A stretch of DNA of 64,000 nucleotides from Nanobdellota archaeon (GTDB taxonomy: Archaea > Nanobdellota > Nanobdellia > Woesearchaeales > JAHIVG01). Where the stretch lies: assembly GCA_043806015.1 (NCBI GenBank), contig JAZDHH010000008.1:37695-101694 (forward strand), read 5' to 3'. A program made the position numbers and the translations under genes. The notes beneath the pieces are model-generated. The model saw only the letters and a program-made list of their open reading frames with translations. It had not been told where the DNA came from and ran no database searches. This document shows, piece after piece, positions 21,630 to 59,985 of the stretch (within the stretch, counting starts at the first letter, position 1; each line of letters starts with the position of its first letter).

Positions 21630-24173
21630 ATGGGGGTTCATCTGATGCGGAAGCTACTTGTCCCTTTCTTACTCATCATTTCCCTCGCGTTTTGCGCGGA
21701 GGCGCTGACCTCATCCTTTGAGGCGACGGCGCAGCATGCATCCTTCTCCCTCTGCCAATGCGACGCCGTTGCTGAGCGCATGCTCGTCCAGAACACCGGC
21801 GACCTGCCGCTGACAATCCTCGTCGAGCAGACCGGGGAGGGCGCTGCCTTCGCGACGACCTATCCGCTCGCGTTCACGCTGCAGCCAGGGAAAGCCCAGG
21901 AGATCTATTCCTATGTCAGCGTGCCCTGCAAGACCTCCAGGGGAGGCTACCCTCTGCAGACCACGTTCATCGCTGACAATGGGGTGAAGAAGCAGTTGGA
22001 GCAGGGCATCCAGGTGAGCCGCTGCCCGAACCTCAATGTCTGGGCCACGAAGGCTGAGGCGCAGGTCCTTCCCTGCCAGAGGGCGAATTTCACGTTCTTC
22101 ATCCAGAACACCGGCAAGAGCCCGGAGACCTTCGACATCAGTGTGAAGCCCCTCGGGGAATATGCGCTGCTGAGCTTCGCGGCCGTCGAGGTGCAGCCGA
22201 ACGGCACCGCGCCACTCGTGCTGCAGGTCGCTCCGCCCTGCAACCTTTCCGGAGACTTTGACCTCACGCTCTCGGTGCTCGCGCGCAAGAGCCGCTTCCT
22301 CGCCGAGACGCCTGTCGCATTGAGCATCCTCCCTTACTATAATTACTCTGTAACGTTGCCGCAGAGCATTTCTCTCTGCGAGGCGGACACCCTGGCCATC
22401 CCGGTCAGGATCCAGAACCAGGCGGGCTTCTCGAACAGCTTTGTCGTGGAAGCGATGGGTTTTGCCTCCCAGAGCTTGCAACTCGGCACGAAGGAGACAG
22501 GACATCTCAATCTCACGGGGCAGCTCGTCCCTGGAGAGCGCAACCTCACGGTCACCGTGACGAGCGTCTTCGGCAAGGCGGTCTACGGACAGAACATCAG
22601 CGTCTCGGTCGAGCGCTGCGCAGCTGTCGAGCTCTCCGCGCCGCAATACCTGACCCACGCCTGCGTGGGCGAGACTGCCTGGCTGCCATTCACAGTCAAG
22701 AATGCAGGAACAAGGGCGCAGAACCTGAAAGTCAAGGTCTCGCCGGCCTGGGCCATTGCGCCGCAAGCGCTGCAGCTCGCGCCAGGGGAACAGAAAGACA
22801 TCGTCGTAGGCATCGCGCCGGATGCTGAAGCGAAGGAAATCCCCGTCACCGTCGAGATCACCAACAGCAAGGCCCTCGCTTCGGCCACTGCGCATGCTTC
22901 CTTCGTCAGCAAGCAGGCATGCGAGTACGCCGTTGTCGAGCCGGCCGCGAAGACCATCTCTCCGATGAACCAGACCGTAACCTTCACGATTTCCAACCGC
23001 GGTGTCAGGGACGCGAACTATACGCTGAAGCTCGACGCCCCGGACTGGATCTCCCTCTCCTCGCCGCAGGTGAGCGTGCCCGTGGATGGCGAAGGCAGTG
23101 TCTCTCTGCAGGTCTCCCCTCCGAACCTCAGCGGCACCTATCCTGTCGCCCTGACCGTCTTCGTGGGAGGCAAGGACACTGAGTACCATGCCGACCTCGC
23201 GCTCAAGGTGCGCAAGCCAAGCCCCCTGATCGTCTGGGCTACCACGTTCCTCAAGGCGTACTGGATGTATGTGCTCATCGCTTTGCTGCTCCTCATCATC
23301 ATTATCATCCTGGTCGTCCTGCTGGAAGACCGCAGGCGAAGGAAAGAGGCGCAGAAGAGCAAGGAGGAACGCGACGAGGAAGCGGCAGCTGCCGCGTTCC
23401 GCGGTGCCGAGGCGTTGCAGGACCAAGGCATGCCCTACAACGCGCTGCTCGGCTATCAGGACGTTGTCAATCGCTATCGCCGGACACCCTCTGCCCGGGA
23501 GGCGAGGAAGCGCATAAGGCGCCTGGACAAGAAGCTCAGGCTCGAGGCCCAGCGCTCCGCCAAGCAGGAGATCGTGGCTGAGAAGCGGGTCGAGAAGCGA
23601 CAGGAACAGCGGCAAGAGCGCAGGCCGGGGCGCAAGAAGAAGGAGCGCGAGCCGTCCCTGCTGTTCAACATCCTGCTGACCCTCCTGATCCTGCTGCTCC
23701 TCATCGCCGCCATCGTGGCGCTCTACTACACAACGTTCAGGCGCGGCCAGCAGGAGGCGAACGCGACGGTCAGCGAGACGCCCTCGATCCAGCCTTCCCT
23801 GCAGCCATCCTTGCTGCGCGTCCTCAGGCAGGACACGCCATTGACGCTCAACCTTTCCACCATGTTCTCTGATCCGGACAATGATCCTCTGACCTTCGCT
23901 GCCGCCCCATCCGAGCATCTCAGCGTCGCCATCAACGGCAGCCTCGCGACCATCACGCCGGCAGACGGCTGGACAGGCGAGGAAGACCTCGTCTTCAACG
24001 CGAGCGATGGCAGCTCGGTCATCTCATCGCCGCCGCTTTCTTTTCGCGTGGTCGAGGGAAAGCAGAGCCTGCTGCAGAAGCTCGGCGGCTACCGGACGTA
24101 CATCATCATCGGCATCGTTGCCCTGGTCCTGCTCATCGTCTTCTTTCAGCTGATGGCAAAGAGAGAGAAGTAA
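21630..24173 (+). CDS. Multi-domain surface protein with three TM segments and an internal basic/acidic coiled region
   Basis: The ATG at 21630 lies ~30 nt after the TATATATATA box (21595-21604), so the transcript may be leaderless. The signal is LLVPFLLIISLAFCAEA. It carries CARDB-like repeats, a TM at ~aa 545, a K/R/E-rich segment with one TPR-like unit, a second TM, an Ig-like domain and a C-terminal TM. Confidence 0.8.
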   Translation: MGVHLMRKLLVPFLLIISLAFCAEALTSSFEATAQHASFSLCQCDAVAERMLVQNTGDLPLTILVEQTGEGAAFATTYPLAFTLQPGKAQEIYSYVSVPCKTSRGGYPLQTTFIADNGVKKQLEQGIQVSRCPNLNVWATKAEAQVLPCQRANFTFFIQNTGKSPETFDISVKPLGEYALLSFAAVEVQPNGTAPLVLQVAPPCNLSGDFDLTLSVLARKSRFLAETPVALSILPYYNYSVTLPQSISLCEADTLAIPVRIQNQAGFSNSFVVEAMGFASQSLQLGTKETGHLNLTGQLVPGERNLTVTVTSVFGKAVYGQNISVSVERCAAVELSAPQYLTHACVGETAWLPFTVKNAGTRAQNLKVKVSPAWAIAPQALQLAPGEQKDIVVGIAPDAEAKEIPVTVEITNSKALASATAHASFVSKQACEYAVVEPAAKTISPMNQTVTFTISNRGVRDANYTLKLDAPDWISLSSPQVSVPVDGEGSVSLQVSPPNLSGTYPVALTVFVGGKDTEYHADLALKVRKPSPLIVWATTFLKAYWMYVLIALLLLIIIIILVVLLEDRRRRKEAQKSKEERDEEAAAAAFRGAEALQDQGMPYNALLGYQDVVNRYRRTPSAREARKRIRRLDKKLRLEAQRSAKQEIVAEKRVEKRQEQRQERRPGRKKKEREPSLLFNILLTLLILLLLIAAIVALYYTTFRRGQQEANATVSETPSIQPSLQPSLLRVLRQDTPLTLNLSTMFSDPDNDPLTFAAAPSEHLSVAINGSLATITPADGWTGEEDLVFNASDGSSVISSPPLSFRVVEGKQSLLQKLGGYRTYIIIGIVALVLLIVFFQLMAKREK

Positions 24174-24178
24174 AAAGC

Positions 24179-24479
24179 TGGGGGTGCTGGGACTTTCAAG
24201 CGACACTCGTCTCCTGGGAAGGCAAGGCCCGTTTCTTTTTTTCCAGTCACGAGCCGTTATTCAGGGGCTTGAGCGCGTAGCGCGAAACCCCCATCGCAGT
24301 CTTTTTAATCCGTCAAGGACCTTTCGACCGCTCAGGTATTTTTCCCAGGTGCACGAAACCCAAAGGTTTCGGCAGCTGTTTGAACCCAGATTGGCTGGTG
24401 TCTGGCCGGAATCGTCATCGCCCGAAGGCTCCGCGCTCCTCTGGAGCCAGCCGTACTAGCCAGCTTATACGACACCCCC
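24179..24479 (-). tRNA. tRNA-Trp(CCA) with two introns (41 nt at 37/38; 186 nt in the T-loop at 59/60)
   Basis: Acceptor GGGGGTG/CACCCCC. D arm GTAT-AAGCTGGCTA-GTAC. Anticodon arm GCTGG-CTCCAGA-CCAGC. T arm CTGGG-TTCAAAT-CCCAG. Exons are 24479-24441, 24399-24379 and 24192-24179, giving 74 nt mature. TTTAAATA lies ~30 nt upstream (24508-24515) and a T5 run follows the 3' end. Confidence 0.85.
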
Positions 24480-24507
24480 AAGGGTAGGGAAAAGAGGAAG
24501 GCTTTGG

Positions 24508-24515
24508 TTTAAATA
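24508..24515 (-). promoter_or_regulatory. TATA box for tRNA-Trp
   Basis: TTTAAATA/TATTTAAA centred ~32 nt upstream of the tRNA 5' end. Confidence 0.5.
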
Positions 24516-24650
24516 ACTTATGTTGACGTGAAATCCCCTCTTGGCGGGTCGACGGCCGCCTCATTCCATTCGACGTCCTGCTCGCCACCCCGACGGAGCC
24601 AACCCCCGGCTCGCCGACCGCGAGGGGATTTCTCAAATCCCCCGACTATT

Positions 24651-24995
24651 TCAAAACGATATTTTGTCCCCGATACGAGTCTTCGTCCTCGAAACAGTCC
24701 CCGCAGGCAGCTCGATGACCGTGCAGGCGGCCTTTTTCGGGCTGTAGAAGGCGAAGGGCAGAAGGCGCTCCTTGAGCTCGACGACCCGTTTCTTCTCGTC
24801 GAGGAAGAGCACGTCGATCGGGAAGAAGACGAAGAGCATGTGCAGCGAGACCCGTTGCTTCCCCTTGAAGAGGAAGAGGAACGCCTCGTCCTTGAGCTTG
24901 CGGTGGAACATCAGGCCGAGGGCCTTGGAAGGGATGCTGCGGCAGGCCGTGACCTCGGAAGCCAGGCGACGCTTCCTGGTGGCATTGGAAAGCAT
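24651..24995 (-). CDS. DUF192 family protein
   Basis: 114 aa with ...ALGLMFHRKL...FLFLF......LHMLFVFFPIDVLFLDEKKRVVEL......TVIELPAG......IGDKI, which matches the DUF192 (COG1430) pattern. A TATA box at 25018-25026 lies ~27 nt upstream. Confidence 0.8.
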   Translation of the reverse strand: MLSNATRKRRLASEVTACRSIPSKALGLMFHRKLKDEAFLFLFKGKQRVSLHMLFVFFPIDVLFLDEKKRVVELKERLLPFAFYSPKKAACTVIELPAGTVSRTKTRIGDKISF

Positions 24996-25078
24996 GGCTT
25001 TTCCACGGCATGGTTGCCTTTAAATAGCCTTCGGTGAGGTGGACAAAGTACGGATCAGGCGGAAAAAATAACAATAAG

Positions 25079-25086
25079 CTTAAATA
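25079..25086 (+). promoter_or_regulatory. TATA box (CTTAAATA) for the 25112 gene
   Basis: Lies ~29 nt upstream of the ATG at 25112, which implies a leaderless or near-leaderless mRNA. Confidence 0.5.
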
Positions 25087-25111
25087 GTTGTTATTCCCTA
25101 GCAGTAATTTT

Positions 25112-28100
25112 ATGGGGGGATCATTAACTGCTGCGGTTTTAGTTTCATTACTCGGCTTCTTTTTCTTCCAGGGCATGCTGATGGCTACTGCTGAGGACAT
25201 ACCTGTTTCCTTCGTTCCACAAGAGGGCGCAATCTACCGGGTGAGTGCAATCGATCATTCGAATCCTCGCTCGGTAAAAGCACCCACTTTCTTGGCATCC
25301 ATGCCTGCGGAGAGGCTCATGACGCTCCCCCAAGGAGTCTATATGCTGGAGCGAGAGGGTCCGGCTGGTGAACGGACGCTGGTGCGAAAGGAAGGAGAGA
25401 ACGACTTCCGCGTTTATGTCTATTTTAAACTTCTTTATGACAGCTATACGACCTATGGGTACGAAGAAGGCACCGTCTGGGAAGGGGGCAACATCCAATA
25501 CCAGTGCGAAGGCCCCTATGGAGGCAACTGCGATACCTACGAGGTCATGTGCGTCGATTATTACGAGGATTACCAATTCGACGAGTGCTGGGGGCGGACT
25601 AGCACGTTGATGAATGCGTGCAAGAACAAAATAACTGAGATATACGATCTGTGTTCATCCCAATCGTGGATGTGCCATTCAAGCGGGGTATCATCCTCGC
25701 ACTGGTTTGACAGTGCGGTATTGGAAAGCGCGGCAACCTTCGGGAATACGATGTATGTTTTCTATAATTGCACTACCCCCACGGCGCGTTGGTACAGCGA
25801 CTATCAAGGGGTCAATGTCATCGACAGGATCAGGTCATATACCGGATACAACCAAAACAGGTGGGAAGTGAGGGGAAGGACAGACTCTTACCACTATATT
25901 GATGAGATGACTTGCGAATCCGGGAAGGTTCGCGATGATAGTATCGTTGGCTACATATCGTATGATGACGATTATCGATATGAGAACGATTATCCCCATT
26001 ATCCTTGCCGTCTTTCAGACGGCCAGCAATGCACGCAGGGCAGCGAATGCCTGACCGGCCATTTCTGTGCCTGCGGCAAATGTAACACGACCACCGTCTG
26101 CTGCGGCAACAGCATCTGCGATGGCGGCGAGAACTACTCGAGCTGCCCTCAAGACTGCCCGAACCCTTGCCCCTACCCGAACGGGACCTCTGAGGACTGC
26201 GAGTGCGACTCTGACCCGGACTGCACGCCCTACGGCGACATGTACTGCCATCAGCAGTCAGGCTGGGATCCTTGCTTGCCGGTCATCCACACAAACGAGT
26301 GCCAGAGCGCCGGAACCTTCTTCTGCGAGAACGGCTGGGTGAAGAAGTGCGTCTCCCAGGGAAGCTACAACGTCAAGGTGCCAATCGAAGATTGCAATGG
26401 CCGCTATAAGTACTGCGATCCCCTGGTCGTGGACGGTGGCAACTGCTCGACAACGCAGCATGATGTCTGGATTGACTACGCCGATACGGGAGTAAAGGTG
26501 AACAAGCAAGCAGGTGATATTATTGAAATGAATATCTTTTTGCAGGCTACTGGGTCTGTGAACGTGCAGTACGATACTGACACCTTCTCCTCTGAATGCT
26601 TCGGTCAAAGGAACCTGCCGGCAGGGACATGGACATGCTCCTTCACTGTTCAGGAGGATGCACAACCCGGCATTTACACTCTTTGGGCGGATGACAAGCC
26701 CGCAATGGTCGAGGTTATAAGTTCGCCAGACTTCCTGGTCGTGACGCATTCAGAGAACCTTCGAAAGCATTACCCGAACGAGCAGGCCGGCGTCGACGCT
26801 GTCCTGAAGCAGGCGTACTGGAATGCGGTAGATAGGGGCGTTGTGTATGACCTCGCGCTGTACGATCTGGGAGTCGTTCATCCCTTCTCTTTGTATGGTG
26901 ATTACCATGAGAAACTCTCAGCTCCGACCTTTATGGACAATCTCTATGCCGTTCGAGTCTCTGAGTTTGTTGTGTCTCATTGCCAATCGTGTAGAGAGAT
27001 TATGGTGATAGGAGATGATTTTGTTCTTCCTTCTTATCGTTCCATAGCACCGGTGAGCAAGGGTTTGTCGCTTTTTGGGATTACGAATATTTTTGAAAGG
27101 CAAGAGGATGTCCCTATCTACACTGACGCATCCTTGATACCTCGAAACGTCAATACGCTTCAATTCAAGGACATGCCGTATGTATTCGCTCATTACAATT
27201 ACAAACATCACAGGCTCGAGGAAAAGACCGTTGTCTTCATCATTCCGGAGGCCGCATCGGCCGATTTATTACTTGCTATAAGAGACTTAGAAAATACTAT
27301 TGAAACGAAATATAACGCCTCAATCGAAGAAAAGCAATCATCCGCCATCCGGTGTGATTCTTTAGAATATTTTGATACCTTGCGCACGGCAACGCCGGTG
27401 ATTATCGGTGATCGTGAACATAACCAGGCCTTTTCCTGTTATCCTTTCCTTGACTTTTTATCGAATTCGGTCTCACTGGAGCTTAATGTCTGGGACAGCG
27501 ACGAGCCTGCGGTATTGATAACTTCTATGAATCCGAATATCACGGCGAATTTTAATTTGATGGTTCAAGATGACATCGTCGATTATATTGCGGCAAGAAG
27601 CATGACAATGACCGATAAGCTTCTTATGGTCGGGGGGGCAGTCGCGATTGGTGGAACCATTGTCGCTGCTGCCGCAGGGGCGCCCGTTATTGCCGCAGGC
27701 GCAGGCATCGTGGCCATTGTTGCTGCAGGGACGAGTGTAAGCAATGAATGCATCATAAAAAATGAGGGTGGGCGCAACTGGGTGATGTGCGCCGTGGATG
27801 TTGGAGTCAACGCGGCAGGGGGATTGTTAGGAAAAGGGGTCGCGAAAGTCGCATTCTGGGCAAAGGAACGGTTCATCGCAATAGGGGGTGATGCCGCCGT
27901 CAGGCTGATGACGAAATATTCAGATGATGTCATCCTTAATCTAAAAAAACTGATGACCTCTCACTGGGGCGGAGAGCGCTATGAGGCGTTTATGAATTTT
28001 TTACGACGGTATCGTGAAATGAGCGATATTGCAGATGATTTTTACAAATATGTGGCCAGATATAATGGTTTTGAGAAACAGACGTTAAAAGAATTTGAGA

Positions 28101-53355: not shown

Positions 53356-53560
53356 CGGGCCGGACGAGACTTTCGTCGCCTTTCACGGCTTTTCGTAAAA
53401 GGCGCTTCGAACTCGCGACTCCCGCATTAAAAGTGCGGTGCTCTGCTGCCCGAGATCTCCGGATGAGATTTTCAAAGCCGTTTTTTCATCCGATAAGGCT
53501 GAATAAAGGCTTATTGAGTGTATCTCAAGCGGTAATCGCTCCAGGCTGAGCTACCGGCCC
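53356..53560 (-). tRNA. tRNA-Lys(UUU) with two non-canonical introns (~95 nt in the D-loop; 36 nt in the T-loop at 59/60)
   Basis: Acceptor GGGCCGG/CCGGCCC. D arm GCTC-AGCCTGG[intron]CA-GAGC. Anticodon arm CCGCA-CTTTTAA-TGCGG. T arm GCGAG-TTCGAA[intron]T-CTCGT. Exons are 53560-53541, 53445-53406 and 53369-53356, giving 74 nt mature. The exact D-loop junction is uncertain. Confidence 0.75.
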
Positions 53561-53599: not shown

Positions 53600-53688
53600 C
53601 GCCCTGGCCGGGATTTTCGTATTAGCTGTGTCGAACCCGGGTCAGAGCCTCGACAGGGCTCTATGATAGGCCACTACACTACCAGGGC
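53600..53688 (-). tRNA. tRNA-Asp(GUC) with a 16-nt intron in the T-loop (59/60)
   Basis: Acceptor GCCCTGG/CCAGGGC. Anticodon arm GAGCC-CTGTCGA-GGCTC. Variable loop TGAC. T arm CCGGG-TTCGAC[53629-53614]T-CCCGG. The mature tRNA is 73 nt. TTATAA lies ~24 nt upstream. Confidence 0.85.
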
Positions 53689-56260: not shown

Positions 56261-56385
56261 TCCCCGCCCCCGGAGTCGAACCAGGAACCTTTCGGTGCCG
56301 GCTGGCTATTCTTCATCCTCGGGGCGTTGCGCCCAAGTCAAAAAGCTTCTACAGCCGAACGCTCTAACCATTGAGCTAGGCGGGG
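56261..56385 (-). tRNA. tRNA-Tyr(GUA) with a 52-nt canonical (37/38) intron
   Basis: Acceptor CCCCGCC/GGCGGGG, with the C1-G72 pair typical of archaeal tRNA-Tyr. D arm GCTC-AATGGTTA-GAGC. Anticodon arm TTCGG-CTGTAG[56348-56297]A-CCGAA. T arm CCTGG-TTCGACT-CCGGG. The mature tRNA is 73 nt. Confidence 0.85.
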
Positions 56386-59731: not shown

Positions 59732-59985
59732 TGGGGCCACCGTGACTTTCAAGCTGTTCTCTCAAGGGGGCTTGAGCGCGTAGCGCGAAACCCCCAAAGC
59801 GGTCATGTCTTTCCGTAAAGGAATGAAGGACCGCGCTGGTATTTTTCCCAGGTTTTTTTTGTCCGTGAGGACAAAAAAAGCTGTTTGAACACGGGTCACT
59901 AGCTGTCCGTCTCATCGATTCGGCGGGAACCGCCGCTCTTGACGTCCCCGAGCTAGTAGGATAGACCAGGCTACCCTATGGCCCC
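59732..59985 (-). tRNA. tRNA-Pro (anticodon CGG or GGG; register ambiguous) with two introns (~41-43 nt in the anticodon loop; 138 nt in the T-loop at 59/60)
   Basis: Acceptor GGGGCCA/TGGCCCC. D arm GGGT-AGCCTGGTCTA-TCCT (Pro-like). Anticodon stem (A)CTAGC/GCTAG(T). Variable loop TGAC. T arm CCGTG-TTCAAA[59883-59746]T-CACGG. TTTTAAAT lies ~29 nt upstream and a T6 run follows the 3' end. Confidence 0.7.

Follow-up and report, generated by a model that had tools for sequence, protein, structure and literature searches.

The 64,000-nt stretch of DNA analysed here (the window) is part of contig JAZDHH010000008.1 in the genome of a Woesearchaeota-type archaeon from the DPANN lineages. The genome comprises 1.56 Mb in 24 contigs, has a G+C content of 56% and is rated 100% complete. 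On the minus strand of the window, at 24479-24179, lies a single tRNA-Trp(CCA) gene that is interrupted by two introns of 41 and 186 nt. A preliminary description of the locus had proposed these two introns at positions 37/38 and 59/60 of a tRNA-Trp, and ARAGORN runs on the spliced sequence as well as homology to 10 relatives bear this out. It had mentioned neither the minus strand nor the fact that the 186-nt intron, as judged from its paralogues, is a copy of a structured element which multiplied within this genome. The gene is composed of the following parts.

24508-24516, minus strand: TATA-like box TTATTTAAA, 28 nt 5' of tRNA position 1, read from the sequence
24441-24479, minus strand: exon 1, 39 nt, tRNA positions 1-37 (acceptor 5' strand, D-arm, anticodon stem 5' strand, CU-CCA-G)
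24400-24440, minus strand: intron 1, 41 nt, canonical site 37/38 or 38/39, relaxed bulge-helix-bulge (BHB) motif
24379-24399, minus strand: exon 2, 21 nt, positions 38-59 (anticodon stem 3' strand, 4-nt variable loop, T-stem 5' strand, UUCAAA)
24193-24378, minus strand: intron 2, 186 nt, T-loop site 59/60, copy of the multi-copy structured element
24179-24192, minus strand: exon 3, 14 nt, positions 60-73 (U60, T-stem 3' strand, acceptor 3' strand, discriminator A)
24172-24176, minus strand: run of five T, two bases past the discriminator, read from the sequence

We infer that the TTATTTAAA box serves as promoter of the tRNA-Trp gene; similar A/T boxes are found 5' of the tRNA-Pro and tRNA-Cys genes. 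The five-T run is likely the archaeal terminator. The gene ends with the discriminator A at 24179, CCA is not encoded, and G1 (24479) pairs with the C at 24180. A73 and the G1-C72 pair are identity elements of archaeal-type tRNA-Trp.

Standard searches overlook this gene. ARAGORN with default settings called no tRNA in the whole window, and with intron search it made no call on the unspliced locus or on the locus with intron 1 alone deleted. Deletion of intron 2 led to the call of a tRNA-Trp(cca) with a 41-nt anticodon-loop intron, and deletion of both introns gave a clean 74-nt tRNA-Trp. The ARAGORN search with intron options, suggested as a check in the preliminary description, thus yields the Trp call once the 186-nt intron is removed, and the cloverleaf is complete only after intron removal, as had been claimed. 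At the gathering threshold, the sole Rfam match in the window was an unrelated tRNA at 56261-56385; eight weak matches appeared in 23900-24800 at E <= 10, none of them inside 24179-24479. Compared with tRNA-Trp from 10 further genomes of the order, the spliced product is identical in 57-64 of 74 positions (77-86%). Exon 1, intron 1 and exon 2 gave BLAST matches in 14 other genomes.

Within its own genome the spliced sequence maps solely to this locus, as three blocks. No second tRNA-Trp was present among the 34 ARAGORN calls or the 32 Rfam matches obtained genome-wide. Two 18-nt look-alikes of the anticodon arm (on contigs C23 and C4) were rejected as candidates, being located in paralogous coding genes and reading CAA instead of CCA. 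The gene is real and, almost certainly, functional, and we consider it very likely that it represents the single functional tRNA-Trp(CCA) gene of this archaeon, with both introns being removed by the splicing endonuclease EndA.

Splice sites of the two introns

The 301-nt precursor folds without constraints into a minimum-energy structure of -125.1 kcal/mol (z = -3.34; none of 100 shuffled sequences was as stable). This fold contains the acceptor stem, the T-stem CUGGG/CCCAG, the bulge AGU, a 4-bp helix UUCA/UGAA, the bulge AAC and the helix AGC/GCU. All elements of the hBHBh' motif (a BHB with its flanking helices) that had been proposed on the T-arm are hence found in the predicted precursor, and they form a strict version of it at the junctions of intron 2, with two 3-nt bulges, 4 bp between them and a helix on either side. 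Cuts after the second base of each bulge restore a 7-nt T-loop, again as described before. The two halves of the motif are located as follows.

24375-24384, minus strand: 5' half, with UUCA (central helix, T-loop positions 54-57), AA|C (bulge, 5' splice site) and AGC (outer helix)
24192-24201, minus strand: 3' half, with GCU (outer helix), UGAA (central helix) and AG|U (bulge, 3' splice site)

Since the T-loop 54-60 with its 5-bp stem corresponds to the anticodon loop 32-38, site 59/60 is the counterpart of the canonical site 37/38. The T-stem and UUCA are contributed by the host gene, and UGAA, both bulges and the outer AGC/GCU helix by the intron. In all eight T-loop introns that we read, the central helix agrees with the T-loop of the host: UUCA pairs with UGAA in tRNA-Trp, tRNA-Pro and the tRNA-Trp genes of two relatives (G001, G025), and UUCG pairs with CGAA in tRNA-Lys(CUU), tRNA-Arg(CCU), tRNA-Lys(UUU) and one tRNA of G001. 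The 3' end of the intron complements the host loop and, therefore, the element brings half of the splicing motif along. The T-loop introns in tRNA-Trp of G001 (same family, 17 nt) and G025 (another family, 16 nt) are likewise located at 59/60. No T-loop intron was seen in the other 10 tRNA-Trp genes called by ARAGORN; the tRNA-Trp gene of G003 has a D-loop intron instead.

The genome encodes the enzymes for such a reaction. EndA is represented by a 178-aa open reading frame (ORF) on contig C17 with one subunit of the catalytic type (PF01974, 104.5 bits), and an RtcB RNA ligase is encoded as well (PF01139, 555.7 bits). A precursor of about 300 nt would be transcribed from the TATA-like box to the T5 run, EndA would excise both introns, RtcB would ligate the exons, and CCA would be added post-transcriptionally. 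The self-fold of intron 2 would draw its two splice sites together. According to PMC5829648, alpha4-type endonucleases with an extra loop, an insert tied to broad specificity, accompany heavily disrupted tRNA genes in DPANN lineages, and incomplete tRNA sets in such genomes are taken as a hint at undetected disrupted genes.

Four metagenome runs, each from a different study, supplied one short contig apiece that aligns with 24374-24484. The aligned stretch takes in exon 1, both sides of intron 1, exon 2 and four bases at the start of intron 2, and the contigs differ from the window there by 0, 3, 4 and 9 bases. Beyond the match these contigs enter another hairpin, in which a U-run and an A-run enclose a short G+C stem; CCUGG follows. 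The stem bases vary from contig to contig but remain complementary. That related populations have an element-type insertion at this very site speaks against an assembly artefact, with support that is thin because the contigs are of low depth and 151 bases long. The exon 2 pattern found a single match in metagenome contigs, by chance and within a protein-coding gene.

The canonical intron was present in all 14 tRNA-Trp genes read (this genome and 13 relatives, where it measures 28-88 nt); on comparison of these genes we regard it as the ancestral canonical intron of tRNA-Trp in this order. In 13 of the 14 (this genome and relatives from the set L002-L016) it holds a GGAGCG-NNGA-hairpin-(C/A)(G/A)AUGA module. 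The module begins with GGAGC, which is complementary to positions 31-35. A single G separates this guide from a box of four bases with GA at its end, after which come a G+C hairpin and finally CGAUGA or CAAUGA. The 4-base box is AUGA in seven genes, CUGA in two and CGGA in this genome, where the intron reads GGAGCG-CGGA-hairpin-CGAUGA and resembles a degenerate box D'/C' module. By the counting used for box C/D RNAs, the fifth base upstream of the box, which is the second G of the guide, lies opposite C34 in 13 of 14 genes, and a guide of this kind would direct 2'-O-methylation of C34. Intron 1 fails the box C/D definitions (one GAUGA, no UGAUGA, no CUGA, no terminal C or D box) and has no match to an Rfam C/D family at E <= 10, and for these reasons we put the guide role forward as a hypothesis. 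Genes for Nop5 and fibrillarin are adjacent to each other in this genome. That tRNA-Trp introns nest box C/D RNA is stated in a 2014 review (PMC4090602).

Several points weigh against the reading of a functional gene with two efficiently spliced introns. The preliminary description had spoken of a textbook motif, and the term fits the T-loop intron; the motif of intron 1 is only relaxed. In a constrained fold with the cloverleaf enforced, it has a central helix of two Watson-Crick pairs, a 2-nt bulge and a 4x5 internal loop. In the relative L002 this site has a motif that is near-perfect as judged by eye. The D'-like box of this genome reads CGGA, compared to AUGA or CUGA in the relatives. Because of the poor BHB and the CGGA box, efficient splicing of intron 1 and its guide function are both assumed. 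ARAGORN tolerates several alternative deletions, for example of 185 nt, and the exact cut of intron 2 thus rests on the BHB rule; a repeated A leaves the placement of intron 1 ambiguous between 37/38 and 38/39. Splicing at both junctions is predicted from the DNA sequence, and the 24-contig assembly leaves room for a second tRNA-Trp that may be unassembled.

The structured element in the second intron

Paralogues of intron 2 were searched with BLAST and nhmmer, and the profile built from seven copies gave 13 matches at E <= 2e-4. A covariance model recovered 11 copies at E <= 5e-12, so that 11-13 copies are spread over 8 contigs. They have a common layout, which starts with CAGCU and continues with a hairpin P1 (usually a U-run/A-run stem), the conserved ACCUGGGAAAUACC, a hairpin P2 and a hairpin P3 with a 7-bp stem and an inner 4-bp hairpin. 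Covariation supports this fold, since 11 of 19 predicted pairs are preserved through double changes. In intron 2 of the tRNA-Trp gene, P1 is followed by a closing helix that encloses P2, P3 and a fourth hairpin.

24350-24374, minus strand: P1 hairpin, a variant without U-run that is common to the tRNA-Lys(CUU) copy
24342-24349, minus strand: CCUGGGAA, 5' strand of the long-range closing helix, paired with UUCCCAGG in the minimum-energy fold
24296-24331, minus strand: P2 hairpin (GCGGUC...GACUGC), covarying among nine copies
24264-24292, minus strand: P3 hairpin, the conserved core, consisting of GGGGGUUUCG, the inner hairpin and CUCAAGCCCC
24213-24220, minus strand: UUCCCAGG, 3' strand of the closing helix in the minimum-energy fold

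The U-run/A-run hairpin occupies the P1 position in other copies and in the metagenome contigs. The genomic contexts of the element were determined by ARAGORN deletion scans and by reading by eye.

T-loop intron (59/60): tRNA-Trp, tRNA-Pro(CGG), tRNA-Lys(CUU), tRNA-Ser(GGA), tRNA-Arg(CCU)
Anticodon-loop intron (37/38): tRNA-Arg(UCG)
Directly after the 3' end: tRNA-Val(GAC), tRNA-Leu(CAA)
Between a 13-nt 5' stump and the complete gene: tRNA-Cys
Free-standing: contigs C6, C17 and C21

In tRNA-Arg(UCG) the GAAAG end of the element lies opposite CUUC of the anticodon loop. The tRNA-Pro(CGG) gene is also located in the window (59732-59985, minus strand) and has a 43-nt anticodon-loop intron in addition to a 138-nt T-loop intron (59746-59883). 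The latter is a copy of the element that shares about 80% identity with the Trp copy along 87 nt, has identical BHB bases and carries a run of seven U. Runs of 5-7 U are kept in the Pro, Arg and Ser copies, and we would expect them to hinder archaeal transcription. We also considered a promoter within the element, which would turn the U-run copies into split genes, but no TATA-like box was seen in the element.

Of 30 copies, 15 have direct repeats of 12-64 nt on either side, compared to 1 of 81 control windows, and none was found at clean intron copies. Two non-intron copies (L101, G000:C15:23350-23650; L103, G000:C6:97950-98280) are flanked by 13-nt direct repeats. In one case the repeat corresponds to the 5' end of tRNA-Cys, and a TATA-like box lies between the element and the complete gene; in the other it is a stretch with GGAGG ahead of a gene. 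An informal look for an element of the IS200/IS605 type or an omega-RNA gave no support, as there was neither a constant target nor an adjacent ORF.

These copies bear on the question whether the locus could be a dead tRNA gene that was broken by a repeat, the working tRNA-Trp being hidden in unassembled DNA. Repeats and tRNAs often stay unassembled and the assembly has 24 contigs, which would allow for such a scenario. Against it stand the intact exons with every conserved tRNA position, the perfect BHB at intron 2, whose central helix fits the host loop in each of the eight T-loop introns, and the intronic position of the same element in five other essential tRNAs. Furthermore, the tRNA-Trp genes of G001 and G025 also possess a 59/60 intron, four metagenome contigs show the same-site insertion, and completeness is rated 100%. 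We regard a dead gene as very improbable and retain the reading of a functional, spliced tRNA-Trp.

Still further from our expectation, and practically negligible, is that intron 2 is a self-splicing group I or group II intron or an assembly chimera and not a substrate of EndA. Group I introns do occur in Woesearchaeota, although all 39 reported in PMC6125680 reside in rRNA genes. No group I or group II family of Rfam matched 23900-24800 at E <= 10, and a size of 186 nt together with a strict BHB fits a substrate of EndA. The paralogous copies on 8 contigs and the independent metagenome contigs that reach the same junction also speak against this reading.

Outside this genome, about 25 of 43 exact matches to the P3 motif in a collection of species-level genomes fell into assemblies labelled Woesearchaeota or Nanoarchaeota. 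The remaining matches, about 18 of 43, were bacterial and correspond to the chance level for a 19-base pattern in 596 Gb. Among 401 genomes of the order, the motif was found in 18, with eight copies here, four in G131 and one or two elsewhere; a reversed-pattern control produced one match. The covariance model matched 9 of 41 relatives, with 11 copies here, three in G001, two in G010 and one in each of six others. The core hairpin is thus patchy in the order, yet common to many of its families. In viral contigs the 17 matches to the P3 motif are about the number expected by chance, and none had the hairpins of the element except for a doubtful one at a contig end (L119).

Elsewhere the element mostly occurs in a short form (P1, linker and P3), either within D-loop, anticodon-loop or T-loop introns or flanked by duplicated 5' parts of tRNAs or other repeats. 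At L062 and L068 (G044:C6) we observed tandem units composed of a TATA-like box, a tRNA 5' stump of about 20 nt and a short-form element, repeated 5' of a real intron-containing tRNA gene. Locus L123 (1425-1645; G001:C115), from the same family, contains a T-loop intron arranged like the element, with P1, CCUGGGAAA, a closing UCCCAG and a GCGUCGAAAG end. Its third hairpin differs and, therefore, the conserved P3 sequence is not obligatory. The T-loop introns of 16-17 nt in tRNA-Trp of G001 and G025 and in the tRNA-Asp of the window resemble the two ends of the element joined together; they may be deletion products or an ancestral hairpin that received the rest.

How should this distribution be understood? 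Tentatively, and without giving it even chances, we propose that the element is a mobile BHB cassette: non-coding and self-folding, it would carry the outer helix along with both bulges, would end at its 3' side in YGAAAG, the complement of the UUCR in T-loops and some anticodon loops, and would also insert elsewhere, leaving long direct repeats. As the cassette would bring its own parts of the motif, it could become a spliceable intron in almost any tRNA gene. If true, it would offer a living, sequence-defined system for the long-standing problem of gain and loss of tRNA introns in archaea, and the invariant P3 would be a handle for a factor of mobility or processing.

Intron 2 might also be a gene in its own right. 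Its excised RNA would then persist, probably as a circle, and have a cellular role, with P3 as a protein-binding or functional core. The identity of P3 over 17-19 bases across genomes whose flanking DNA ranges from 32% to 56% G+C argues for this, as does the inner part of P3, which was left unconstrained in the search and forms a hairpin of at least 3 pairs in 19 of 25 and 19 of 29 DPANN matches, compared to 2 of 14 bacterial and 4 of 17 viral chance matches. P2 and P3 covary, and an invariant U-G pair is permitted on the transcribed strand only. Precedents mentioned in PMC4090602 and PMC3491384 are the box C/D RNA in tRNA-Trp introns and the stable tRNA-Met intron of Nanoarchaeum equitans. 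On the other side, the patchy occurrence (exact motif in 18 of 401 genomes, model in 9 of 41) is better explained by a selfish element than by a needed RNA. Rfam at E <= 10 gave no match in intron 2, and inspection by eye revealed no box C/D, K-turn, H/ACA or guide-like feature, RNase P or known ribozyme core. We consider a persisting, functional intron RNA unlikely. Full-text searches of open-access papers and bioRxiv gave no description of the element.

Neighbouring reading frames and overlooked tRNA genes

Three ORFs exist mechanically at the locus, and the preliminary description had called them spurious because of the tRNA. They and the neighbouring gene are listed here.

24184-24459, plus strand: ORF antisense to the tRNA
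24415-24636, minus strand: ORF running across the promoter and exon 1
24528-25037, plus strand: ORF clear of the tRNA, with a low-complexity translation, shadow of the DUF192 gene
24651-24995, minus strand: DUF192 gene, 114 aa (PF02643, E 6.5e-20), the real gene upstream of the tRNA

None of the three ORFs has a Pfam match, and we read all of them as spurious. The reason given fails for 24528-25037 on the plus strand, which does not overlap the tRNA; this frame is spurious since it is the antisense shadow of the DUF192 gene at 24651-24995 on the minus strand. ORFs 24528-25037 (plus strand) and 24646-25200 (minus strand) gave weak six-frame matches beside the tRNA-Trp of G001, which are explained by the DUF192 gene in a third frame; both ORFs, longer than this gene, are shadows of it.

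The genome-wide searches yielded 32 tRNAs with Rfam or 34 with ARAGORN and introns, and none for Trp, His, Gln, Glu, Asp or Ile. So few tRNAs in a genome rated 100% complete mean that many more interrupted genes must be hidden. A tRNA-Asp(GUC) at 53600-53688 of the window (minus strand) has a T-loop intron of about 16 nt with an ACAGCU start and a CGAAAA end and is missed by standard finders. Directly downstream, at 53356-53560 (minus strand), a tRNA-Lys(UUU) is interrupted by an intron of about 95 nt in the D-loop and by one of 36 nt in the T-loop, the boundaries being set by eye. A further T-loop intron, 44 nt long, is located at C20:39319-39362 in a tRNA-Ser(CGA). Altogether, standard finders miss tRNA-Trp and about a dozen other tRNA genes in this genome. 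DPANN genomes would therefore be wrongly scored as being without essential tRNAs, with false ORFs called over the missed genes.

The locus links a tRNA intron to a dispersed structured repeat in three states: as an intron, next to a gene and free-standing. Same-site variants in relatives and metagenome contigs provide material on how archaeal tRNA introns move, a mechanism still called unknown in PMC4090602. The conserved module in intron 1 suggests that DPANN archaea, too, may methylate C34 of tRNA-Trp with an intron-borne guide.

Comparison with known systems

Non-canonical introns, including those at 59/60, and tRNAs with multiple introns are established for Crenarchaeota and Nanoarchaeota according to the 2014 review (PMC4090602), which gives a range of 11-129 nt for archaeal tRNA introns. 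The 186-nt intron extends this reported range. Like the multi-intron tRNAs covered there for Thermoproteales, Nanoarchaeota and ARMAN, the gene described here combines one canonical with one non-canonical intron and a transplantable BHB. Unlike them, it belongs to a Woesearchaeota-type DPANN host, and its larger intron has 186 nt and a conserved multi-hairpin interior.

In Thermoproteales, the recurrence of similar introns in different tRNA genes has been interpreted as transposition by a mechanism called unknown (PMC4090602; bioRxiv 10.64898/2026.10.13.758758). As in the transposed introns of Fujishima et al. (2010), which we cite via summaries, related introns are distributed here across isoacceptors and over canonical and non-canonical sites of one genome, namely in six host tRNA genes and at two kinds of position. 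In contrast to the Thermoproteales families, the element is also found outside introns (after tRNA-Val and tRNA-Leu, at the tRNA-Cys stump, and alone), direct repeats of 12-64 nt border 15 of the 30 copies examined, and the core hairpin occurs in many families of the order.

For the canonical intron, the closest parallel is the euryarchaeal box C/D small RNA nested in the tRNA-Trp intron, reportedly described by Clouet d'Orval et al. in 2001 with C34 and U39 as targets. Both concern the canonical intron, and the guide GGAGC on positions 31-35 faces C34 in 13 of 14 genes. Unlike the euryarchaeal RNA, the module is a half module in introns of 28-88 nt, and its box in this genome is CGGA. The mobile box C/D sRNA genes of N. 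equitans, for which a circular intermediate is suggested in PMC3491384, are likewise a family of structured RNAs tied to tRNA genes and introns in a DPANN archaeon. The element described here differs from them in being free of C/D boxes, and its mobility is presumed from its distribution. New in comparison to these systems are the host lineage, the size of 186 nt, the conserved fold and the presence of the same element outside introns with flanking repeats.

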